Positions 496-12,290 of a stretch of DNA of 64,000 nucleotides are shown here, in pieces. Positions within the stretch are counted from its first letter, which is position 1, and every line of letters begins with the position of its first letter. The notes under the pieces are model-generated. The model made no database searches, was not told the origin of the DNA, and worked only from the letters and a program-made list of their open reading frames with translations. Origin of the DNA: a virus (lineage: Duplodnaviria; Caudoviricetes). The DNA lies in the IMG/VR virus record IMGVR_UViG_3300025735_000009, positions 1 to 64,000 of that record. One strand, written 5' to 3'. The position numbers and the translations under genes were made by a program.

Positions 496-1092
496 TCAGG
501 GCTTGGCTTTGGCCACCAGCACGCCTTTGTGGTTGCTGGTGCCGTCCAAGGCCATCGACGTGACGAAGTAGTGATTTTTCTTCCGGTTGTAGACGATTTC
601 CTCCCGCGCGGTACCTGGCTCAATGACCAGCTGGGCCCGGGCACAGATGAGGCTGCCGGCCACCGTGGCGCTGATCCAGTCACCCACCTGAATCTGGCCA
701 GGCGCTCGCAGTGGCTGCCAAGGGCCTGGCATAACCAGGGGATTGGTGTAGACGGGGGTGATCTGACACATGCGATCGGTGATCTTCTCGGCCAGCTCGC
801 GATCGAATACCGCCTTACCACCACCACAGGCTGCGTAGTCGCCAATCCAGGCAAAGGGCTCAGCAGGCTGGAACAGAGCTTGAATAACGCCCAGCAGGCG
901 GTCGGCGCCGATCTCGTCTACATCGCCCAGGCACATGTGGTCGCCTTTGATACGAGCGCACTGCGCGTCATCGGTGAGCTCTTCGGAGCTCCCTACCCAG
1001 CCACAGCGCGTGCACTCGGCGGCGTAGTGGCGGCCGGCAAGAGGCACTTTACCAATGAAGCGCGGCAAGGCCGATTCTCTGGCGGCGCTCAT
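496..1092 (-). CDS. phage hypothetical protein
   Basis: 198 aa ORF in operon orientation; ATGA overlap with upstream gene; N-terminal Cys motif ECTRCGW. Confidence 0.65.
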   Translation of the reverse strand: MSAARESALPRFIGKVPLAGRHYAAECTRCGWVGSSEELTDDAQCARIKGDHMCLGDVDEIGADRLLGVIQALFQPAEPFAWIGDYAACGGGKAVFDRELAEKITDRMCQITPVYTNPLVMPGPWQPLRAPGQIQVGDWISATVAGSLICARAQLVIEPGTAREEIVYNRKKNHYFVTSMALDGTSNHKGVLVAKAKP

Positions 1093-1688
1093 GGCTTGCT
1101 CCTACGGGCGGCGCACATCTGCCAGCCTGCCCAACGAAGGTTTCTCCCATTCGCCCCCTCACCGTAGTGATCGCCGTTGCGAGACTCGCGCATTTGCTCG
1201 GGCGTGATGGGCGTAGAAACGCCTGGCAGCGCGTTGAAGTACTCGCAATAGGCGGCCTCGAACTCTGCCCGCTCATCACGCGCAACCGAAACGCTGCAAA
1301 TTTCTTCGGCTAGATCCTCGGCGCCGTTCTGCACAAGGTCTGGCGTGTTACTGAGGTATGGCAAGGCGCGCTGCAGCAGGACCCCCTGCCGGTCCAGCTG
1401 GGCGCGCAAGGCCAGGTGGTCCGAGAGCAGAACATACAGCGGCTCTACGGTATCGCGGGCCGTGGGGCCGAACTGATTGCGTCCATACACCGGGTCAGGC
1501 ACGACGCCGAACGTTTTGACGCCACCCACGCTGGCTGGCAAAGGTGCCGGCTTTGACTGGTGCGGATAGGGCGGCGTGGCCACAAGCGCCTCAAGCTCGT
1601 CAGCAAATGCCCCCTGACCGGCAAAGCGCAGCGCGCTGAGTACTTCCTTTGGGCCTGGAATGTTCATGGCTTGTTTATCTGTGCTCAT
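1089..1688 (-). CDS. phage hypothetical protein
   Basis: Likely start MSTDKQ at 1688, just after the MTase stop. Confidence 0.6.
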   Translation of the reverse strand: MSTDKQAMNIPGPKEVLSALRFAGQGAFADELEALVATPPYPHQSKPAPLPASVGGVKTFGVVPDPVYGRNQFGPTARDTVEPLYVLLSDHLALRAQLDRQGVLLQRALPYLSNTPDLVQNGAEDLAEEICSVSVARDERAEFEAAYCEYFNALPGVSTPITPEQMRESRNGDHYGEGANGRNLRWAGWQMCAARRSKP

Positions 1689-1725
1689 AGGGATACCTGA
1701 AACCGGCCATAGGCCGGCGTAGTAG

Positions 1726-3486
1726 TTAGGCTGCACTGGATAGGCGATCAACAACGCGCCATGGATCGTTAGCACGGGCCAAGGCTGCCATTGGTGGTGG
1801 GCTGACACTGTTGCCGCACATATGCACCTGCTGGGACTTGGTGAACGGCTCACCGTCCGAGCCCCGGTCAATGATGTAGTCGGCCGGGAAGCCTTGGGCC
1901 TTGTACAGTTCGGACGGCTGCAGCATGCGCAGGCAGATATCGACGATCACATAGGGCGTTCCTTTCACGAGCACAGTGACCAGGCCCAGGCGGTCTTTGG
2001 TGGTGACCGTTGGCGCCGGCGCGTCTGCCGCGCTGGTGTTTTCAGTGCCGTAGTAGCTGATCAGGAACGCAGCCACGCGCAGGGCGCCGGCCTCGTGCTC
2101 TGGTGACAGCGTGTACTCGACCAACCCATGGTGCTCGGCGCCGGCGGTGATAGTGGCGATCGGGGCGCCAATCTCGCTACCAATGCAATTGTTGCGCAAC
2201 GTGGTCAGGTGGGCGGTGGCCAGGCTCTGCGGAGACTTGACGGTCACCGTAGACATGGGCTCGTCCACAGCGCGACCCGTAGACGGGACGGTGCCCCGGT
2301 GGTTGTTGTTCTGCACCATGATCGCCGACGTAAGCGCATGCTTCACCCCGCCAGCGACCACCGTTCCCAGCGGCTGATCAAGGCCTGGCACGCGTGGTTT
2401 CTGTCCCTCACGCTCGCCATATCCGGTTTGCACCAAAGTAGGACTGGCCATGGCGAAGGTGCCGCCTCGCGGCCAGGCAGTGACGGTGCGCAGCGGTTCA
2501 TTGACAGATTGAACGCTGTCACCGGACCAGTTAGCGATCGGCACGATGAAAGGTTGCGGGTTATCGATCACAAACTTTTTCATGCCCTTAGCCACACGGC
2601 GCAACGTGGCGTCGGCCAGGGGCTTGCTACGCCCGAAAATGCTCTTGCTTGGCACACTCCAGTCGATGCAGTCGGCAGCGGTGCGCCACTTCTGCTGGCC
2701 TTTGGCTGGATTCTTGGCGTGGGTGGGCTCCGGCCACACGATCGGCTGGCCATCGCAGCGAGCAATCATGAACAGGCGTTCGCGGATTGTTGGGGCCCCG
2801 AAATCACATGCCTTGATCACGCGCCATTCGACCGCATAGCCCAAGCCTTCCAGTAGGCGCACAAACCGGTGCCAGGTGGTCCCCTGGCGCTTGGGGTTGG
2901 GTACCAGGAACTGATTGGACAACGGTACCTGCTCGCCAGGGTTGGCCACGCGATTGACCATGCTCTTAGGCTTGGTCGGGTGCGGCACCAGGTCGAGTGT
3001 CACAACGCGGCCGGTAGCCTTGTCACGCTTAGCGACCAGAGGCCCCCACTGCAGGATCTGCTTAACGTTCTCGAGGCTGATGACGCGCGGTTTCTTCTTG
3101 CCCGCCCATTTCAGGCCAATCCAAGACAGGTTGCGAATCTCGCGCTTGCGCGGTTGCCCGCCGGCGGCCTGGCTATGGTGGGTGCAGTCTGGCGACATAT
3201 GGAACCAACCAACTGGACGGCCGGCGCACTCTTCGTCCGGGTCACCCTCGAATACGTCCGTGGTGAAGTGCCGGGCGGCCGGATGGTTGACGGTGTGCAT
3301 GCTGATTGCCGCGGGGTTGTGGTTTTTGGCCACGGTCACGGTGCGGCCCAGGCCCATTTCCAGGCCGGTACCGGCGCCGCCGCCACCGCAGAAGAAATCC
3401 ACCACAATCTCATCGTCTTGAGGGTCGAAGCCAAGGCCGTATTGGGTCTTGAAGTCGAAATGGGGCTTTTTGATGGCCGCTGTCAC
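1726..3486 (-). CDS. dcm: C5 cytosine DNA methyltransferase (phage type)
   Basis: Motif I DFFCGGGG, catalytic SPDC, ENV, and C-terminal GNSV motif X. Confidence 0.93.
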   Translation of the reverse strand: MTAAIKKPHFDFKTQYGLGFDPQDDEIVVDFFCGGGGAGTGLEMGLGRTVTVAKNHNPAAISMHTVNHPAARHFTTDVFEGDPDEECAGRPVGWFHMSPDCTHHSQAAGGQPRKREIRNLSWIGLKWAGKKKPRVISLENVKQILQWGPLVAKRDKATGRVVTLDLVPHPTKPKSMVNRVANPGEQVPLSNQFLVPNPKRQGTTWHRFVRLLEGLGYAVEWRVIKACDFGAPTIRERLFMIARCDGQPIVWPEPTHAKNPAKGQQKWRTAADCIDWSVPSKSIFGRSKPLADATLRRVAKGMKKFVIDNPQPFIVPIANWSGDSVQSVNEPLRTVTAWPRGGTFAMASPTLVQTGYGEREGQKPRVPGLDQPLGTVVAGGVKHALTSAIMVQNNNHRGTVPSTGRAVDEPMSTVTVKSPQSLATAHLTTLRNNCIGSEIGAPIATITAGAEHHGLVEYTLSPEHEAGALRVAAFLISYYGTENTSAADAPAPTVTTKDRLGLVTVLVKGTPYVIVDICLRMLQPSELYKAQGFPADYIIDRGSDGEPFTKSQQVHMCGNSVSPPPMAALARANDPWRVVDRLSSAA

Positions 3487-3737
3487 AGCGTTTCGCCCCC
3501 TTTCACGTTGACCGCCATGCAGTGGTCCAGGGACACCGCGCCGCTCTTACCGTCGAACCACACCACAGCGCTATGGCCACCGAGAACTTGGGCCTCGCTG
3601 GTGGTCTTGCCGGTGTGGGTAGTGCCCTGGCCGCGGATGTTCTCGAAGGCGATAGCGGTACCTACCGGGTTTACGGCGTTCCACTTGTCGCACTGGGCTT
3701 GGAGCTGGGCGGGGGTCTTGCGCTTAGGTGCTGGCAT
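3483..3737 (-). CDS. phage hypothetical protein
   Basis: MPAPKRK start with RBS AAGGA; stop overlaps MTase start. Confidence 0.7.
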   Translation of the reverse strand: MPAPKRKTPAQLQAQCDKWNAVNPVGTAIAFENIRGQGTTHTGKTTSEAQVLGGHSAVVWFDGKSGAVSLDHCMAVNVKGGETL

Positions 3738-3751
3738 GGGAGTGTTTCCTT

Positions 3752-4156
3752 TCACAGTTCGCTGGATGCGGGCGCTACGGTTGCGGGCAAGAAGCGAGCA
3801 ACCAGGGGCATGAGGATGCGGATAGAGCTGATGGTGTGGAGGTAGGTGGGGGCGCCAGCCATGCGCCCCAGCAACCACAGCCAGGCGGCGACCAGGCGAC
3901 CGTCCGGAGGCTGGGTAGCCTCAATCTCGCCGGCAAACTCGTCTACCTGAGCCTTGGCACGCACGTATACGCGCGTTCTTTCACAGGCCTGGGCGATGGC
4001 CCGGATCTTGTCGCTTTGCGCCAGCAGGGCGGCGGTCAGCACCTCATGGCTCACGTCATCGGGCAGGTCCAGGCTTTCAATGGCGTCGAACAGCTCGCCT
4101 ACCTGGTCCTCAATGGCTGGCGCTTGGGCCGGCGCAGTGTTGGGTTGGTCTTGCAT
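3752..4156 (-). CDS. hypothetical protein
   Basis: MQDQPN start directly after the AGCCAGATA leader motif. Confidence 0.6.
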   Translation of the reverse strand: MQDQPNTAPAQAPAIEDQVGELFDAIESLDLPDDVSHEVLTAALLAQSDKIRAIAQACERTRVYVRAKAQVDEFAGEIEATQPPDGRLVAAWLWLLGRMAGAPTYLHTISSIRILMPLVARFLPATVAPASSEL

Positions 4157-4190
4157 TATCTGGCTTCCATCTTGTGTAGGTGGTACCGAC

Positions 4191-4211
4191 AAAGCCCGCA
4201 TAGGCGGGCTT
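4191..4211 (-). terminator. putative intrinsic terminator
   Basis: AAAGCCCGC-ATAG-GCGGGCTT hairpin. Confidence 0.55.
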
Positions 4212-4217
4212 GTGTGG

Positions 4218-4334
4218 TCATTTCCAGTAGCGCAGGGTCAGGCCTATCGTGACGTAGCGGTAACCCCGCTCGGCAACTTCGGCCTTGAACTGGAGCAGCT
4301 CGAACGGGGTGGAGCAGTCGAGGGTGTAGGTCAT
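4218..4334 (-). CDS. small hypothetical protein (38 aa)
   Basis: MTYTLDCSTPFELLQFKAEVAERGYRYVTIGLTLRYWK; preceded by the AATCAGCCAG motif; fills an intergenic gap. Confidence 0.4.
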   Translation of the reverse strand: MTYTLDCSTPFELLQFKAEVAERGYRYVTIGLTLRYWK

Positions 4335-4401
4335 GGTCTAGTGCTGGCTGATTTCGGTACCGGCAAAGCCCCAGTCAAGGGGCTTATTGGGCGATTTCTG
4401 A

Positions 4402-4830
4402 TTACTTGGCCCTGTCCTCGTATGCACGGCTGCGGGGCTCGTGAAGCTCGGCCTGCTTGCGTTTGATAGCGTTGTCGTAGCCGGCGCCAGCGTTCCTTTT
4501 CAGGCAGTTGGCGAAGTGCTCGCGCTCTTGGGCCAGGGTGCCTTCGGCCATCCTGATGCAGACGGCATGGGCCTCTTCGTCGGTCATGTCGGCCATGGTG
4601 CAGGCGCTATGCTGGGCGGTGCGCTCTTGGCCCTGCCAGGTCAGGGTGTAGTGGGTGTCCGAATTCGGGCGGAAGTTGCAGCCCATCATTTCGCCGCTGT
4701 CGACGGCTTCGAGGGTCATTTGCTTGGCGCCGCAAGACTTGACGATGGCACGACGGAAGTACCAGGTCCCCTTGCTATCCCAGTTGGAAAAATGGATTAC
4801 GGCTTGGCCCTTCTTGAATTCTTTCGACAT
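4402..4830 (-). CDS. hypothetical protein
   Basis: MSKEFKK start with GGAGG upstream. Confidence 0.65.
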   Translation of the reverse strand: MSKEFKKGQAVIHFSNWDSKGTWYFRRAIVKSCGAKQMTLEAVDSGEMMGCNFRPNSDTHYTLTWQGQERTAQHSACTMADMTDEEAHAVCIRMAEGTLAQEREHFANCLKRNAGAGYDNAIKRKQAELHEPRSRAYEDRAK

Positions 4831-4929: not shown

Positions 4930-5418
4930 TCAAATGCCAGCCCTGGCGACATATTGGGACGATTGTGTAATCCACGCCGCCTGCCGGCCGCCTGCAGGAG
5001 GAAGACAAGGGCGCTCGATGTGGCGCGTCGAGGCGTCGGCCAGGCGCAGCTGAGCATTGCGCTCACACGCCATCTTGAACGGGCGCACGTCCTGGCGCCG
5101 GGAGAGGGAGAACACACCCGCGGCTGTGCGCACCTCCCGCTGATAGCCCTCGCCCACGACCGCCAGCACCCTGACCTCCATCACCAGCACGTCACGGCTG
5201 GCGCGAAGCACGCCTGGCAGCCCCGCTTCGATGGCTTTGAGGGTGACCCGCTGCCCTTCCGGGCGATCGCCGTCCGGGCCGTGGTGGAAAGTCAGTAGGA
5301 GGCGCTCGACGCCGCTGGGCAGCACCCCCATGACGAACTTGTTATCTGCGCGGAAGGCCACAAAGGCGGTGGCGTCGACAACCTGGTTGTGTGGGCGTGC
5401 GTAGCAGTTGAATTGCAT
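4930..5418 (-). CDS. hypothetical protein
   Basis: 162 aa ORF downstream of an operator copy at 5471. Confidence 0.6.
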   Translation of the reverse strand: MQFNCYARPHNQVVDATAFVAFRADNKFVMGVLPSGVERLLLTFHHGPDGDRPEGQRVTLKAIEAGLPGVLRASRDVLVMEVRVLAVVGEGYQREVRTAAGVFSLSRRQDVRPFKMACERNAQLRLADASTRHIERPCLPPAGGRQAAWITQSSQYVARAGI

Positions 5419-5470
5419 GACTCGATCCCTGACATGACTGCGGAAAAGGGCAATTTGCCATGAAAAAAAC

Positions 5471-5481
5471 TATCCGCGTAC
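5471..5481 (-). promoter_or_regulatory. operator-like motif GTACGCGGATA (copy 1 of 7)
   Basis: Exact 11-mer also at 13120, 13182, 21557, 34362, 34956, 34978. Confidence 0.8.
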
Positions 5482-5532
5482 ATGATTCGGACGAAAAACC
5501 ATGCTTTTTGGCTGCGAATCAGTGCCTTGCCG

Positions 5533-6252
5533 TCATTGCGTGTGTGCTTTAGGGGGCACTTGAACGGGTGCCCTGCCCACACATTCGCTACCTGGTACCG
5601 GTGTCACGGTCACACCGTCCAGGAACGCCATCGCAACGGTGTCCCATAGGTCAGGCGGCCCTGCAGGTTGGGCGCACATTTGGGCGTAGGGTGGGATGCG
5701 ATACAGGCCGTTCTCATCGAATGAATAGGGCAGCGCCCGTCCCTGCCTGCTGATGGCGTCCCCCATCGCACTGCAGAGCCGCACAGCGCCATCCCTGATA
5801 GCCTCAGCAGCCTCGACGTAGGCCTGCGCTCGAGGCGTGTGGTAGCGCTTGGCATGGCGGATCACGCCACCGAACTGCACGCCACGCACGCGCAGCCCCG
5901 GCGCCAGCTCCTGCAGCTGCTTGAGGAAGTGAATACCAATGCCGCTGGTGTCGATTGCTACGGTGACGTTGGGCAGGTCCATGGCGTAGTCGATCACCTG
6001 GTGTATCAGCCCCCGCAGGTTTTCGCTGTCCGAGAATACGGGCACGCCCACCTTTTCCACGCGGCGCCGATCGGGGTGCGTCCGGTTGCCCTCGCCAGCA
6101 ACGAGCAAGTGCGTGGCCACCGTGCAATAGCGCCCCACCCCTGCAGCTACCACCACAGTGAGCATATGCCCCCACCGCTCGTCATGGCGGATCACTGGCG
6201 GGCCGTCGATGGCCTTTTCGATCTCTTCGCGGGTCAGCAGGTACTTGTTCAT
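5533..6252 (-). CDS. degenerate paralog of the terminase C-terminal nuclease domain
   Basis: Aligns by eye with the C-terminal half of the adjacent TerL (KYLxxR, VAAGVGR, TVATH, PDRRRVE, PDxxDTV); VDVAAG changed to VVVAAG and RDKT to RYCT. Confidence 0.85.
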   Translation of the reverse strand: MNKYLLTREEIEKAIDGPPVIRHDERWGHMLTVVVAAGVGRYCTVATHLLVAGEGNRTHPDRRRVEKVGVPVFSDSENLRGLIHQVIDYAMDLPNVTVAIDTSGIGIHFLKQLQELAPGLRVRGVQFGGVIRHAKRYHTPRAQAYVEAAEAIRDGAVRLCSAMGDAISRQGRALPYSFDENGLYRIPPYAQMCAQPAGPPDLWDTVAMAFLDGVTVTPVPGSECVGRAPVQVPPKAHTQ

Positions 6253-6299
6253 GTGTCAGCTCTCAGTGGTAGGCGCCAGCACGGCGCGGGGTGTTGTTG

Positions 6300-7856
6300 T
6301 CAGTCCAGGTCGGCCAGCTCTTCCATGGCCTTCTCAAGGGCTTGCTCGCGCTTGTCCTGTACCAGCGACTCGCTTTCGGCGCGCGCCGGCACGTAGTCCA
6401 CGCTTTCCAGGAAGACCATACAGACGGTGTCGAAGTAGTCGGGCGACGGCAGGTTCTCGGACGCCATGTCCTGCTTACGGGCAATGTGGTACCGCCCGAG
6501 CTCGTCCAGGTGGTACGGCATACGGCTGGCCTGGTCGAGCAGGTCCTTTTTGTATTTGCTGGTGAAGCGAATGGCGCCATCTTTGATGGCCTCGATCGCG
6601 TGCACGGTGGATTGGGCGCGCTGGTTGAGGAAGCGCTTGCGGTATTCGTTGGAGAACGGCAGTTCGCCCCAGCGCACGCCCTTGCAGTGGATACCGCCCT
6701 GGCCAAGCTCCTGCAGGCGCTTGAGGAACTGGTTACCCATGGCGTTGGTGTCGACGACGATCGTGACGTTGCTGAACTGTGCGGCGTAGTCCAGCACCTT
6801 GCGCGCCACCGGCGTCCAATCCTCGGTGCTGGTGTAGACCGGCACGTCGACCACTTCCACGCGGCGCCGATCGGGCGACATGCGATCGCCGTTACCGATG
6901 ACCTTGAAGTGGGTGGCCACCGTCTTATCTCGACCCACACCGGCCGCCACGTCGACGACAATGACGTGACCGTATGCCTCGCCGTCCAGGATGACCCGCG
7001 GGCCTTCAATGACGCGCTCGACCGCCACACGGCTGACCAGGTACTTGCTGGAGTTGGTCGGGAACATGCCCCGGACCTTGATCTGGTACTCAGGCTCATC
7101 ACGCCCGCCGTACTGGATGATCTTGGCCTTGATGAATGGCAGGTCGACCAGCGGGCTGTCTTCGGAGTTGAAGGTAAGCGCCGTCCACTCGCCGCCCTGC
7201 GCCTTGCTCAGGTTGTGGTGCGTGTCCCGGAAGAAACCGCTATCACGGGTAGGCTGTGACGCCATGATGAAGCGGTTACGCTTGTCGGTCAGTGCGCCAC
7301 CGATCACGCCAAAGTTTGCGTCCGGGATACCAGACGCCTCGTCCGCCATCCATAGCAGGTAGCGTTCGTGGGTACCGGCCAAGTTCTCAGGCGAGCCACG
7401 GGGCGCGGTGCGGGTGGTGATGAACCAGGTAGCCGAACGGGTCTTGATGTAGACCTTCTCGGCTTGAATCTCGATGTACTCAGCAACCCACGCGTGCGGG
7501 CCTTTCTTGATCTCCGCCAGCAGGTTGGTCATTTCCTTCCATACACCCTCTCGCACCGTCTTGAGCTTGGGCGCGGTTATGTAGGTGTTGGAATTGGGAT
7601 AGCACAGCATGTGCCAGAAGCCGATCACGCCAAACGAGCGCGTCTTGCCGGTACCGTGGCCAGACGCCACCGACACACGGGCGCCGAACACGCTGGTTTC
7701 GTCAAACAGGTCTTTCTGCTGGTGCGTGACGTCCATACCACACACCTCGACCGCAAAGGCGTAGATATCGGCGGCGTAACGCTCCATGAATTCCGGGTAG
7801 CGCGCATCAGCGTCAATGGCTGCCCGCTCTACCTTCTGTTTTGACGATCTGGCCAT
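6300..7856 (-). CDS. terL: terminase large subunit (P1 PacB-like)
   Basis: Walker A SGHGTGKT, Walker B WMADEAS, RNase H-like nuclease VDVAAG...PDYFD. Confidence 0.92.
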   Translation of the reverse strand: MARSSKQKVERAAIDADARYPEFMERYAADIYAFAVEVCGMDVTHQQKDLFDETSVFGARVSVASGHGTGKTRSFGVIGFWHMLCYPNSNTYITAPKLKTVREGVWKEMTNLLAEIKKGPHAWVAEYIEIQAEKVYIKTRSATWFITTRTAPRGSPENLAGTHERYLLWMADEASGIPDANFGVIGGALTDKRNRFIMASQPTRDSGFFRDTHHNLSKAQGGEWTALTFNSEDSPLVDLPFIKAKIIQYGGRDEPEYQIKVRGMFPTNSSKYLVSRVAVERVIEGPRVILDGEAYGHVIVVDVAAGVGRDKTVATHFKVIGNGDRMSPDRRRVEVVDVPVYTSTEDWTPVARKVLDYAAQFSNVTIVVDTNAMGNQFLKRLQELGQGGIHCKGVRWGELPFSNEYRKRFLNQRAQSTVHAIEAIKDGAIRFTSKYKKDLLDQASRMPYHLDELGRYHIARKQDMASENLPSPDYFDTVCMVFLESVDYVPARAESESLVQDKREQALEKAMEELADLD

Positions 7857-7899: not shown

Positions 7900-7940
7900 A
7901 CTGTACGGGGCGCCTGGATAGCGTTTAGCGCGGGGTTTGC
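7900..7940 (-). promoter_or_regulatory. putative late promoter for terL
   Basis: GCAAACCCC (7940-7932), 26 nt, TACAGT (7905-7900). Confidence 0.7.
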
Positions 7941-8707
7941 GCCACTGGGGCGCTCTGCACCAGGGTCGCCAGAAGAGCGGCCTGATGGCTTGATAGGGGC
8001 TTGCCGGCTACCAGCTCGACGAAGTGGCGCATATCGTCCTGGTGGCGAGCTCGCTGCTCGGCGTAGGTGGGTGCTTGCGACTGCTCGAGGTCGACAAGCG
8101 GATACCCATGCCCCCTGATCCAGTTCATGGTGAACTCTGGAACATGCCAGTCATGGGCGATGACCAGGGCATTGCCCTCGTAGACCATGGTGCTGCCGAT
8201 TACCCCCAGGCAGGTGGCTGGCAACTTCTCGCCGCCTTCCACGAGCCACAGCAGGCGCTGGGCGTACTCTCCGGCCAATGCCTCGGGATACCTGGCCGAC
8301 GCCTTGCGCATCTTGATAGCGCTGCCAAGGCGCCCCTCCACGGCCCATCCGGTAGCGCGGTGCTTGATGCCACGCGCCAGCCAGTAGAAGCGGCCGGTCC
8401 TGATGTGCTTGTGCAGCTGTGCAATGGCGCGGTTTGTTTCGCTGGCGCTGTCCGCGGGCGATGACAGCATTGTGAGCGAGTCCGGTGTGGTGGTGATGTG
8501 CCACAGCGCCAGCACCGCCAGCACCACGCCCTGTTGCTCCTGGCTGCCGGCGTTATGCAGCATCAGCCTGGAGGCATCCAGATGCGGGAGTGCGCCCAGC
8601 AGTTGGTCAGGGATCGCTACGCCACACACGTCGACGGCAAAGGCGTGCGGGTCACAGGCATAGCGCTCGGCAAAGGCTGGCCAGCGAAGATCGGCGTAAA
8701 GAGTCAT
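7925..8707 (-). CDS. degenerate paralog of the terminase N-terminal ATPase domain
   Basis: RWPAFAERYACDPHAFAVDVCG matches TerL RYPEFMERYAADIYAFAVEVCG; PEALAGEYAQRLLW matches PENLAGTHERYLLW; Walker A and B not conserved. Confidence 0.85.
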   Translation of the reverse strand: MTLYADLRWPAFAERYACDPHAFAVDVCGVAIPDQLLGALPHLDASRLMLHNAGSQEQQGVVLAVLALWHITTTPDSLTMLSSPADSASETNRAIAQLHKHIRTGRFYWLARGIKHRATGWAVEGRLGSAIKMRKASARYPEALAGEYAQRLLWLVEGGEKLPATCLGVIGSTMVYEGNALVIAHDWHVPEFTMNWIRGHGYPLVDLEQSQAPTYAEQRARHQDDMRHFVELVAGKPLSSHQAALLATLVQSAPVAQTPR

Positions 8708-9291
8708 TCCTGGCTTCCTTGTGCGTGGTGGCGCTCACGATCGGCGATCAGCAGCGCCACGGCCTTGTTGATGGATTCACTGGCGTCACAGCGTTTCATG
8801 GGATGGGCAGGCCATGGCCAGAAGCGCTGATAGGCGAATGGCTGAATGCCGGCCGCCTGGAACACGTAGCAGCCCGCAGCGCGGATCAGCTCGCCCCCGG
8901 TGTACTGCTGGTCCCAGTCCTGGCTGTAGCCCTCGCCTTCCTGCTGGCGCAGGCGCTCCATCACCATGGCCATGGCCACAGGGGAGACGGCTGGCACGTT
9001 GAGGAAGAGCGGCATAGGTGGCTGCCAGCCCTTGCGGGCTTTCTCATCCCAGCCGGTAGAGCCAGGGCCAGGCGGACGGGTGTAACTCAGCCCGTGGGGC
9101 TTGTTGGCGCGGCGGGTGGCCCATATCACCGGAGTGGCGCCAGCGTCACCCAGCGGCTTGGCAGCGCTTAGCCATACCTGGTAGGTGGCCTGGGTGCCGG
9201 GATCGACATAACCGTCGCCGGCGCGCTCGAGGGCGGTGATACCCGCCTCGGCGCAGGCGTGTTCAAAGTCGGCGCGCTCCAGGAACATCAT
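8704..9291 (-). CDS. phage protein with conserved ER.RQ...EG...GEL..AA.CY...WPW module
   Basis: C-terminal module common in phage accessory genes; ATGA overlaps. Confidence 0.7.
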   Translation of the reverse strand: MMFLERADFEHACAEAGITALERAGDGYVDPGTQATYQVWLSAAKPLGDAGATPVIWATRRANKPHGLSYTRPPGPGSTGWDEKARKGWQPPMPLFLNVPAVSPVAMAMVMERLRQQEGEGYSQDWDQQYTGGELIRAAGCYVFQAAGIQPFAYQRFWPWPAHPMKRCDASESINKAVALLIADRERHHAQGSQE

Positions 9292-9512
9292 GCGGCACCT
9301 GCCAGGGGCGATGCCTCGATGATCTCCCAGCGCTCGGCGGGCAGGTGCTGGCGCTCTACACGCTGCACCGATCCGGCCGGGCAACGCACATACAACGTCT
9401 CGCCTATCTCCAGCTCCACGCGCATGCGCTCATTGGTTTTAAGGTCGACCACCGCAATCGATGGGCGGGTGCGGGTGCTGCCTGCATTGGTCAAAGCGGG
9501 GTTGTTGTACAT
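9288..9512 (-). CDS. hypothetical protein
   Basis: MYNNP start; stop overlaps next start. Confidence 0.5.
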   Translation of the reverse strand: MYNNPALTNAGSTRTRPSIAVVDLKTNERMRVELEIGETLYVRCPAGSVQRVERQHLPAERWEIIEASPLAGAA

Positions 9513-9700
9513 GGTCACAGCATCTTCAAAGGTAATTGAGCCCGGGCGCATTCGTTGAAACCGTGTGGAAGGGCCTTCCCGGCCCTCTCACAGTTGCGGC
9601 GCCCGCAGTCTTGGCAGTAGGTGTAAGCGGTAGGTCGGCCCTGGTGGCGCCACACCACACGCGCACCGTCGCAATAACGGCACTGCATGCGGGGTGCTCC

Positions 9701-10480
9701 CTATTTATCCGCGTCCTGGGGGTTGCGCTTGCTCATCATCAAATCCGCGTAGGCCCACCGGCGATCAGCGTAGGTGGCCAGGTCTTCGCCCTCGAGCATG
9801 GGCAGCGGGCAATGAATGGCGAAGTCATCGCGCAGGTCTTCCAGGTGCTGCAGGTCAGCCGCTGGCGCCGGGTAGATCTTGATACCGCCTTTCAGCATCC
9901 GCTCACGCAGCTCAGGCGATACCAGGAAGTGCGGGCCGGCGTTCTTGCACTCGGCGTCGACACGCTTCAAGAGCTCGCCGAACTCCGACCACTGGCGGCT
10001 ACGCTCGGCAGCCTCGCGCGATCCAGAGCTTTCTCCAGGGACGCAAAGCGTGCCATTGAGCGTGCCGCACACTGGGGTGAAGCTCGCCGCCTCGGACAAG
10101 CCAGCACAATCAGTGTTAGCGGTAGGCGCTGGCGCAGGATCAGCTACCGCGGCCGCCACGCGCTGCGCCAGGTCGTTGTCCAGGTCCAGCTGGTGAGCCT
10201 CGCGCATACGCTTGGCCAGGCCCAGCGAGCGGGTCAGCGGGGACTTGAGGAAGTCCTCGATGACGGGGCGCAGGCCGATCGGCGTCTTGACGGTACCGCC
10301 GGCGCCTTTCTGCACCACCGCCCAGCCGGCGGACGTGCCTACGAACAGCAGCTGGGCGTTGCCGTTACCCTTACGGGTCTTGCACTTGTGGCCGACCAGG
10401 TATTGGCGAAACGGCTCTACCTGCTCGAGCTTGAGCAGATCGGTGTCGTTGATTTTCAGCATGTCTACCGCTTGGTTCAT
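9701..10480 (-). CDS. hypothetical protein
   Basis: MNQAVD start at ATGA overlap with the upstream HTH gene. Confidence 0.65.
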   Translation of the reverse strand: MNQAVDMLKINDTDLLKLEQVEPFRQYLVGHKCKTRKGNGNAQLLFVGTSAGWAVVQKGAGGTVKTPIGLRPVIEDFLKSPLTRSLGLAKRMREAHQLDLDNDLAQRVAAAVADPAPAPTANTDCAGLSEAASFTPVCGTLNGTLCVPGESSGSREAAERSRQWSEFGELLKRVDAECKNAGPHFLVSPELRERMLKGGIKIYPAPAADLQHLEDLRDDFAIHCPLPMLEGEDLATYADRRWAYADLMMSKRNPQDADK

Positions 10481-10788
10481 TGCCCTTGCTCCTGCAGTTG
10501 TCTCGAGGTGTACGGTTTCAGGTTCTCGGCCCGGCCGCGGCGGCGGGTCGGTTTGGATTCGGTAGCGAGCGCCAGGGGCCTTACCCACAGCTGCCCAGTT
10601 TTGAACTGGAACAGCTCCCACAGGCCTAGCTTGATTTCAGCCTCGCCCTTCTCGTAGCTCTGCCAGGAACGGCGGCTGACGTGGATCAGGGCGGCACTGG
10701 CGCGCTGGCTCAGGCCGGCACGCTTACGAGACGCGCGGACCTGCGCAGCGTCGGGTATCAGGTCGGCGATGGATGCAATAGCGGTCAT
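10477..10788 (-). CDS. XRE-family HTH transcriptional regulator
   Basis: VRASRKRAGLSQRASAALIHVSRRSWQSYEKG. Confidence 0.85.
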   Translation of the reverse strand: MTAIASIADLIPDAAQVRASRKRAGLSQRASAALIHVSRRSWQSYEKGEAEIKLGLWELFQFKTGQLWVRPLALATESKPTRRRGRAENLKPYTSRQLQEQGQ

Positions 10789-11867
10789 CCCAATTTTCCT
10801 TCCTCAATCATGCGCAGGCGCTCCTGCATTTCCGCGCGTTGGCGCTCTGTCTTCTCGTGGGCGCGCGCAATGCGTTCGTCCAGCTCTTCGGTGCTCGGCC
10901 CGGCCTGTACGACAACGGCGGGTTCGACGTGTAGGTCGAAGATCTTGCCCAGCAGCTCGCGGTAGGCCTTCTGGGAGCCCGCGTGCACTTTGAGGCCGTC
11001 TTTCGTCTTCTCGACGCCCTCATACAGCGCCAATGCGGCTGGGCTGTAGGAGCGAGAGTCATGGAAGTAGAGGTACTGGTAGCCCTCGCCTGCGCACTCC
11101 GGGCAGTCCGGGTGGGGCGGAAGGCGCTTGTCATAGCCCAGGCCGCCCAGTTCATCGAAGGGGGGCAGGGTTTTGTTGTTGTTCTTCGCATCCGCCAGGG
11201 CGGCTTCGTACTCGGCCAGGCGGTCTTCCATTTCCCGGGGAGTGTGCTGGTACCGGTGGTCGATACCGTGGCAGTAGTGGCAGCAGGCGCGGCGCAGCTC
11301 GGAGATTTCCCGGGCATCAGCGAAGGCCGCGGCATGGATCACACCGATAACGGCGTTCTGCACGTCGGCGGTGCGCTTGAACATTTCGGCCTGGCGGGCG
11401 GCATAGTACGGATGGCTCTTAACCTTCTTTAACAGCCTGCTGGCCCCTGCAGCGGCCACCGCGTCGCTCTTGGCGGAATAGCCCGCATCACGGTACGACT
11501 GGGTGGCGTTGTAGGTGGCCAGGTACAGGTCCACGAACTTGGCCATCTTCGGGCTCAAGCCGTGCAACTCCGCAAGCGCTAAGGCCTCCAGCTCTTTTTC
11601 AGAGAGCGGGATCGGGTTTTTGATCTTGGTGGTGCCCTGCTTGCCAGGCGTGGTGCTGGCGGGCTCGGCCGCGGCTTTGGCGGTCTTTTTGGGGGCAGAA
11701 TTCTTTGCCGTTGCGGGGGCTTTCCCGGCACCCTTTCCGGCAGCCTTTCCCTTGTTAACCTTAACAGCCGACGCGGTGCGGGGTGACCGAGCACCGGGCT
11801 TACCCGATGACGCGGATAGTTGATCCTCACCCATGTCAGGTTTGTCGGTTTTAGGGTTACGTGGCAT
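10785..11867 (-). CDS. terS: terminase small subunit
   Basis: LSPKMAKFVDLYLATYNATQSYRDAGYS HTH typical of phage TerS, plus CCHYC...CPEC module; start MPRNPK with GAGG. Confidence 0.85.
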   Translation of the reverse strand: MPRNPKTDKPDMGEDQLSASSGKPGARSPRTASAVKVNKGKAAGKGAGKAPATAKNSAPKKTAKAAAEPASTTPGKQGTTKIKNPIPLSEKELEALALAELHGLSPKMAKFVDLYLATYNATQSYRDAGYSAKSDAVAAAGASRLLKKVKSHPYYAARQAEMFKRTADVQNAVIGVIHAAAFADAREISELRRACCHYCHGIDHRYQHTPREMEDRLAEYEAALADAKNNNKTLPPFDELGGLGYDKRLPPHPDCPECAGEGYQYLYFHDSRSYSPAALALYEGVEKTKDGLKVHAGSQKAYRELLGKIFDLHVEPAVVVQAGPSTEELDERIARAHEKTERQRAEMQERLRMIEEGKLG

Positions 11868-11942
11868 GGCTACCTCAAGCGCACTTTCTGCATTGCTGAA
11901 CGTGGTACAGGGGCCAACTTCCTGCGCCTCCTGCACGTTTGT

Positions 11943-11964
11943 AAAAAAGCCCGCGTGTGCGGGC
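11943..11964 (-). terminator. intrinsic terminator closing the candidate ncRNA
   Basis: GCCCGC-ACAC-GCGGGC followed by TTTTTT on - strand. Confidence 0.8.
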
Positions 11965-12290
11965 CCTTTCACTTCCTTCCTTGCCGCTACGCTGCAGGCT
12001 GGTACCTACAGCGGTTTCCAGAACCGGGCACGCCTCTGGTCAGGCGCGCATTGAGGAGCAACCCTCTGCCCTTCGCGGTTATCCATGCCATTGGTGTTTA
12101 GGGCCGGTCCTGCACCCCATCACACGCCCTCTTTCCCGGGCATGCGGCTCTGCCGGCAAACAACTCCAGCAGGCCACCAACAACGAGCGACCACGCAACG
12201 CACCCATTCGGTGGGTCAGTCCTTCCCTCGGCAGCAGAACATCAGGTACAGCGCTCACACAGGTTGCAGCGGGGGTGCCTTATGCCAGGT
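11943..12290 (-). ncRNA. candidate large structured non-coding RNA (family unknown; 5' end approximate)
   Basis: No credible ORF; at least 7 helices, many with G-U pairs only on - strand; long-range closing helices; terminator at 3' end. Confidence 0.6.

Follow-up and report, generated by a model that had tools for sequence, protein, structure and literature searches.

No protein of tailed phages is more conserved than the large terminase, which is also a main target of bacterial pattern-recognition immunity (Avs1-3 and Upx). P1 pacB reportedly also yields an in-frame internal product, a finding attributed to Skorupski et al. in 1992. In phage phi29, the vestigial nuclease domain of gp16 serves by binding in the packaging motor. 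The phi29 ATPase's C-terminal domain has been called a vestigial nuclease inside the packaging motor (PMC7672431). Phage T4 has vs.8, a separate, lineage-restricted gene that comes from one terminase domain and has been discussed as encoding a possible anti-defense protein (PMC13601566). No description of stand-alone dead terminase-nuclease paralogs turned up in a literature search that covered decoys, inactive paralogs, and truncated forms of the large terminase.

The protein analyzed here, pC, resembles each of these systems in part. It shares sequence homology, a predicted RNase H-like fold, and the RRRVE, D-x-x-G-x-G, RAQ, and PD..D motifs with the nuclease domains of PacB-type large terminases (TerLs), but it is encoded by a separate gene, has no ATPase domain, has replacements at the beta1 Asp, the "RD" Asp, and the Lys, and has no acidic C-terminal arm. 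Like the phi29 gp16 domain, which is the best precedent for a non-cutting role, pC is a terminase nuclease-like domain that does not appear to be a working nuclease. However, the gp16 domain belongs to a phage that does not have to cut its DNA and is joined in cis to the sole ATPase of that phage, whereas pC is extra, optional, and stand-alone beside a fully active TerL. In the case of T4 vs.8, the likeness is that of a separate gene made from a single terminase domain; vs.8 is an ATPase half that keeps Walker A/B and activates EcAvs2, whereas pC is a nuclease half with a dead site. A second protein at our locus, pN, is a nearer analogue of vs.8 than pC is, but its Walker A motif has been lost.

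The window, meaning the whole stretch of DNA analyzed, covered the initial 64 kb of an IMG/VR virus record that is 77.6 kb long. Its TerL matched only phrog_2 and phrog_5902 among the Pfam, PHROGs, and NCBIfam profiles, and it shared 35 to 41% identity with the PacB proteins of P1, P7, and D6 and with TerL from both Xanthomonas phage Rb1 and Acinetobacter phage ABMM1. Because the related elements were Pseudomonas plasmids and contigs, the window element is classed as a P1-like Pseudomonas phage-plasmid. All genes between 1 and 14 kb were on the minus strand, in the order HTH regulator, TerS, small HTH protein, 306-aa protein, three small or medium open reading frames (ORFs), pN, TerL, and pC. 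The features used below were as follows.

5419 to 5532, minus strand: intergenic region of 114 nt after pC, the end of the packaging block, containing GTACGCGGATA
5533 to 6252, minus strand: pC, a stand-alone 239-aa paralog of the TerL nuclease domain
6253 to 6299, minus strand: terL-pC spacer of 47 nt, in which a Shine-Dalgarno-like GAGAG precedes the ATG of pC by 9 nt
6300 to 7856, minus strand: TerL, a PacB-type large terminase of 518 aa whose Walker A/B and nuclease motifs are intact
7925 to 8707, minus strand: pN, a 260-aa dead copy of the ATPase N-half of TerL, with Walker A lost
7931 to 8101, minus strand: C-terminal tail of pN (about residues 203 to 259), a separate ORF in loci L007, L008, and L009
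9701 to 10621, minus strand: 306-aa packaging-operon protein, with a homolog in locus L015 that carries an inserted dead nuclease domain
10785 to 11972, minus strand: TerS (Terminase_2 / phrog_51), 395 aa, first gene of the packaging block, of which pC is the last

The TerL of this block is the parent-type of both dead copies, pC and pN. No terminator-like site was found in a search of the 47-nt terL-pC spacer, and pC, which closes the terS...terL block, probably shares its transcript. The stop, the 47-nt spacer, and the different frame ruled out that terL and pC are joined by read-through or frameshifting. Between pC and the next gene (4930 to 5418), we found an operator-like 11-mer, GTACGCGGATA, at 5471 to 5481 on the minus strand. 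Elsewhere in the block, the C-terminal 90 or so residues of a 226-aa ORF (8704 to 9384, minus strand) matched the C-termini of eight PHROG families of uncharacterized function that had very different lengths (E down to 3e-16); this end of the protein looks like a shared C-terminal module.

In a BLASTP comparison with the adjacent 518-aa TerL, pC matched TerL residues 270 to 490 with 97 identities in 221 positions (44%, E 2e-58). The motif pairs from which the initial annotation had recognized the C-terminal half of TerL in this ORF (NKYLLTR/SKYLVSR, VAAGVGR, TVATH, PDRRRVE, and PDLWDTV/PDYFDTV) were all in the alignment. Both substitutions behind its claim that the first acidic positions were lost were also real, as seen in TerL VVDVAAGVGRDKT versus pC VVVAAGVGRYCT. 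Specifically, pC has Val34 in place of the beta1 catalytic Asp, Tyr42 in place of the "RD" Asp, and Tyr189 in place of a TerL-invariant Lys. The loss of this Lys, the equivalent of Sf6 gp2 K428, adds a third change to the two previously noted. A profile alignment placed Val34 of pC at Sf6 gp2 D244, Asp101 at D296, Tyr189 at K428, Asp201 at N441, and Asp204 at D444. Asp101, Asp201, and Asp204 are still there, so the second and third acidic residues (the D296 and D444 equivalents) are present in pC. In Sf6, both metals are bound by D244, and the side reached into by K428 is the active site (PMC4678813).

Among the full-length TerLs compared, the beta1 Asp was found in 31 of 31, the Lys in 100%, and the "RD" Asp in 97%. 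The dead forms had Val (or Arg) at the beta1 position and variable residues at the "RD" Asp and Lys positions. Beginning at the equivalent of TerL residue 270, pC has no ATPase domain with Walker A/B, and TerL's acidic C-terminal arm is also missing. In contrast to the catalytic positions, nearly all of the non-catalytic TerL family motifs were present (RRRVE, RAQ, the FDExG hairpin, and PD..D). On these residues, the prediction that pC is catalytically dead is well founded. A comparison of pC with Pfam, PHROGs, NCBIfam, and PADLOC returned no match to any curated profile; against the P1-group PacB proteins, tblastn gave 27 to 28% identity.

Structure prediction, one of the checks that the initial annotation had proposed, gave pC a terminase-nuclease fold. 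The AF2 model had a pLDDT of 92 and was made with a 58-sequence alignment, which was used instead of an alignment of only three sequences that had yielded a pLDDT of 45. All of the top 25 Foldseek matches of the model were terminase nucleases, with best TM scores of 0.60 to 0.65. The best matches were the TerL nuclease domains of E217 (8dkr), Sf6 gp2 (5c10), and HK97 (6z6d), and further matches included the G20c, T4, and herpesvirus terminases. The models thus show a predicted RNase H-like terminase nuclease fold for pC.

A gene for pC immediately followed terL in the window and in loci L004 to L009 and L011. Orthologues with the same Val were 75% identical to window pC in L004 to L006 and about 45 to 47% identical in L007 and L008, and they were also found in L009 and L011. 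The ORFs of the pC family were uninterrupted at 38 to 75% identity. Between the window and L004, dN/dS was 0.27 (NG86) or 0.135 (YN00) for pC, 0.11 or 0.06 for TerL, and 0.35 or 0.18 for pN. The N-terminal part of pC, which contains the dead strand, was the most constrained (omega 0.10 to 0.18), and residues 81 to 140 were the least constrained (omega 0.7 to 0.8). The fastest-evolving genes of the block were pC and pN, with 75% and 70% amino acid identity, respectively, compared to 82 to 98% for their neighbors and 96% for TerL. The purifying selection and the same position in relatives bear out the view that pC is an intact, non-random copy of the nuclease domain. The initial annotation had also raised the prospect of a pN-terL-pC triad that was unique to this genome and degenerating; instead, the triad recurred in L004 and L007, and the dN/dS values were low. 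We are highly confident that pC is a dead paralog of the TerL nuclease domain that selection maintains. A locus search with pC alone as the query returned no related loci, and none were found in the genome-contig set. A subgroup of pC orthologues (P0007, P0008, P0010, and P0013) had a conserved C-terminal extension of about 50 aa (…RGIGASSGDTLRL…R.L…F), and this RGIGASSGDTLRL extension was missing from window pC and from TerL.

An exhaustive profile search identified 183 relatives. The beta1 Asp was kept by every full-length TerL in the aligned set, and the forms without it were 15 short proteins (about 210 to 300 aa), the 424-aa protein P0017, and a group of 390- to 440-aa proteins with Arg at this position. 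Some short proteins in the library may be contig-edge fragments, which are a possible source of three short forms that keep the Asp but not of the Asp-to-Val changes. When the motif columns were left out of the alignment, a maximum-likelihood tree placed the dead forms in separate groups that were well supported and that each adjoined TerLs of their own. One clade (A) contained the window TerL, pC and its relatives, the 390- to 440-aa group, and a second dead group, and another (B) contained other TerLs and five dead forms. Forcing all dead forms, a group defined after inspection of the first tree, into one clade cost 167 log-likelihood units (p-AU 1e-48). In clade B, the dead protein P0025 was 59% identical to intein-bearing TerLs of that clade versus about 25% identical to pC, a scan of viral contigs with P0025 returned clade-B TerLs only, and the second (motif II) Asp of the dead forms was changed to Asn as well. 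The results show that stand-alone dead nuclease copies arose in at least two TerL lineages, and a single origin is rejected. Since the dead clades are separate, the change from the beta1 Asp to Val is convergent.

Further nuclease copies were also sought. No third copy was found in the window, where the 306-aa protein failed to match the nuclease profile, and no second copy was found in the INPHARED records matched (24 to 25 per query). One family member had a different setting. In loci L013/L014, no terL was present in the 6 kb fetched on each side, and the gene adjoined one for a DarA_N/ddrB-ParB polyvalent protein. Specifically, P0014 (230 aa) lay among small ORFs between a 1,372-aa InPase/DarA_N/ddrB-ParB polyvalent protein and an LPD1 protein; the L013 segments concerned were 502 to 4620 and 8937 to 11258.

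Many PacB-type TerLs of 640 to 870 aa carried an insert of 140 to 340 aa exactly at the Walker A loop, where the match broke at about TerL residue 69. The carriers included P0012, P0019, P0022, P0029, P0034, P0035, P0039, P0047, and P0051, and loci L026 to L028. A plasmid hit with this insert (H100) was annotated as a Hint-domain homing endonuclease. We had considered these 640- to 870-aa relatives as pN-TerL fusions and rejected this idea, as they were TerLs with an intein-sized insert at Walker A. Judged from sequence, the inserts are inteins.

In the 306-aa operon protein (9701 to 10621, minus strand), the N- and C-terminal segments were conserved and the middle was variable. With 68% identity between window and L004 copies, this protein evolved at the pace of pN and pC. 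In L015, a plasmid of P. fluorescens DR133, a dead nuclease domain was inserted in a 431-aa homolog of this protein (2616 to 3911), with the N- and C-terminal segments of the 306-aa protein flanking the insert. This Rosetta-stone fusion hints that pC and the 306-aa protein may be functionally linked.

Upstream of terL, pN matched TerL residues 16 to 199 with 29% identity (E 6e-22). Its Walker A motif was lost (GHGTGKT to NAGSQEQ), and its Walker B motif was altered (DE to VE). TerL residues 200 to 267 or so had no counterpart in pN or pC. In the synteny survey, both genes were present in the window, L004, and L007. A pC gene was found without pN in L008, L009, and L011 and also in L010, where it was located five genes downstream of terL. 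Conversely, pN was found without pC in L022/L023 (Pseudomonas sp. GD03730) and in L024/L025, which had two tandem copies of pN. The tandem copies in L024 (412 to 1056 and 1026 to 1853; 214 and 275 aa) were diverged and stood in front of terL with no pC. We found no remnants of pC in the pN-only loci or of pN in the pC-only loci. Loci L007 and L008 were 93 to 94% identical in DNA and differed by a clean 576-bp indel that was exactly pN. In the tree, pC nested with the local TerL clade, and pN formed one long-stemmed clade whose position was not settled.

The tail of window pN corresponded to a separate ORF of 54 to 56 aa located just upstream of terL in L007 (5613 to 5783), L008 (3146 to 3310), and L009 (3965 to 4129). 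Window pN is thus a fusion to a conserved 54- to 56-aa module. The module was fused to the pN C-terminus in the window, L004, and L022. The position of pN relative to the 54-aa module differed among phages, with pN of L007 being on the side opposite to that in the window. New here are the test for multiple origins, the loss of the Lys, the indel of pN, and the fusion at the tail of pN.

The initial annotation had described terL as flanked by a complete but split and inactivated second terminase, which it took for a deliberate two-part decoy or regulatory module. The ATPase half-copy upstream was indeed real, and both halves were intact ORFs; however, a start codon of its own is weak evidence of design, and the pair was not complete, because the part of TerL between the two halves is represented in neither. 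We consider a two-part module whose halves work as a pair quite improbable. It is true that pN and pC flank terL, that they jointly span TerL residues 16 to 199 and 270 to 490, and that the triad is shared with L004 and L007. Nevertheless, each gene occurs without the other, the indel between nearly identical phages removes pN only, pN can be in tandem and can change sides of the 54-aa module, and pN and pC differ in tree placement and depth. Even less probable is a functionless, decaying remnant of a duplicated or replaced terL. As a partial gene copy beside its parent that is optional and evolves faster than its neighbors, pC has some features of a remnant, but dN/dS well below 1, ORFs uninterrupted after more than 50% amino acid divergence in many lineages, a Val conserved at the former Asp position, a confidently predicted fold, and the independent origin of the same dead state more than once all argue against decay. 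That pC is still an active nuclease by means of other acidic residues seems to us scarcely credible. Asp101, Asp201, and Asp204 are kept, but independent clades have a hydrophobic Val instead of the Asp that bridges both metals in Sf6 (D244; PMC4678813), the vicinity has no conserved acidic residue that could compensate, the invariant Lys is gone too, and the motif II Asp is also Asn in clade B.

Two other readings place pC in conflicts between phages and their rivals or hosts. It is possible, though doubtful, that pC (and separately pN) is an anti-defense mimic that binds or soaks up terminase sensors (Avs1-3, Upx, or similar) without triggering them and so shields TerL. The pC gene is fast, optional, patchy, and repeatedly invented, and one family member (L013/L014) is located beside Dar-type anti-restriction genes. 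In addition, binding by Avs3 involves the native nuclease domain along with the residues of its active site, nuclease domains elicit a response from some Avs2 proteins, and it has been suggested that terminase-like non-terminase activators may be anti-defense proteins (PMC13601566). The same study also provides evidence against mimicry, as the one stand-alone paralog of a terminase domain that has been tested, T4 vs.8, does not block EcAvs2 but activates it (PMC13601566). The active-site residues lost from pC are the features that Avs3 is said to read, which weakens the case for mimicry further; the strongest constraint is on the buried dead strand, and pC has no PADLOC match. A wider form of this idea is that stand-alone dead single-domain terminase copies, both nuclease and ATPase, are an undescribed and repeatedly invented class of pseudoenzymes that mimic terminases against terminase-sensing immunity or rival elements, with the convergent Asp-to-Val change being the signature of selection for a non-cutting look-alike; this, too, we regard as conceivable rather than likely. 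An unlikely reading is that the dead domain is a dominant-negative weapon: it would poison the terminase of related phages or satellites that compete with its carrier, and the resident TerL would tolerate it. Dead subunits of oligomeric machines are classic dominant negatives, and rapid divergence and optional presence suit a conflict between mobile elements. However, pC is in the late packaging block and would be made alongside its own TerL, and with TerLs that are 91 to 96% identical among relatives, discrimination between self and non-self is hard to see.

Our preferred reading, which we hold tentatively, is that pC is a non-cutting binding subunit or packaging accessory that modulates terminase cutting or complex assembly. 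As a predicted pseudoenzyme, a stand-alone non-catalytic paralog of the nuclease domain of the phage's own PacB-type TerL, pC would under this reading act by binding rather than by cutting. The family motifs other than the catalytic ones are kept in pC, which suggests that binding surfaces were retained, and the independent maintenance and evolution of equivalent dead copies suggests that pC probably works by binding. The most likely ligand would be DNA or a component of the packaging complex, either the TerL nuclease domain or the 306-aa operon protein; the homolog of the 306-aa protein with an inserted dead nuclease (L015) suggests that the 306-aa protein and pC may work together. Binding of pC would tune pac cleavage or the headful cut. 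For example, pC might occupy the docking site of the nuclease domain without cutting. Because the acidic C-terminal arm is absent, pC probably does not dock on the portal as TerL does. Nor can pC be essential for packaging, since close relatives with a 518-aa TerL (L022 and L024) lack it. Further observations go against a packaging role. A partner of so conserved a protein as TerL would not be expected to evolve as fast as pC and pN do, and this speed is more in keeping with a conflict gene. The family member of L013/L014 is among Dar-type anti-restriction genes with no terL within the fetched 6 kb on each side.

Culturable carriers of related family members exist, so the role of the dead copies can be tested at the bench. 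These carriers are P. fluorescens DR133, whose plasmid (CP048608.1) has a pN-like gene in addition to the inserted dead nuclease, and the pN-bearing Pseudomonas sp. GD03730. Dead nuclease copies that are under selection and have repeatedly undergone the Asp-to-Val change imply a second job for the domain, one for which binding is enough. If this job is to regulate the cut, then pC would be a natural handle on how terminase nucleases are restrained during packaging. If mimicry is true, then the dead copies would represent a new anti-defense principle.
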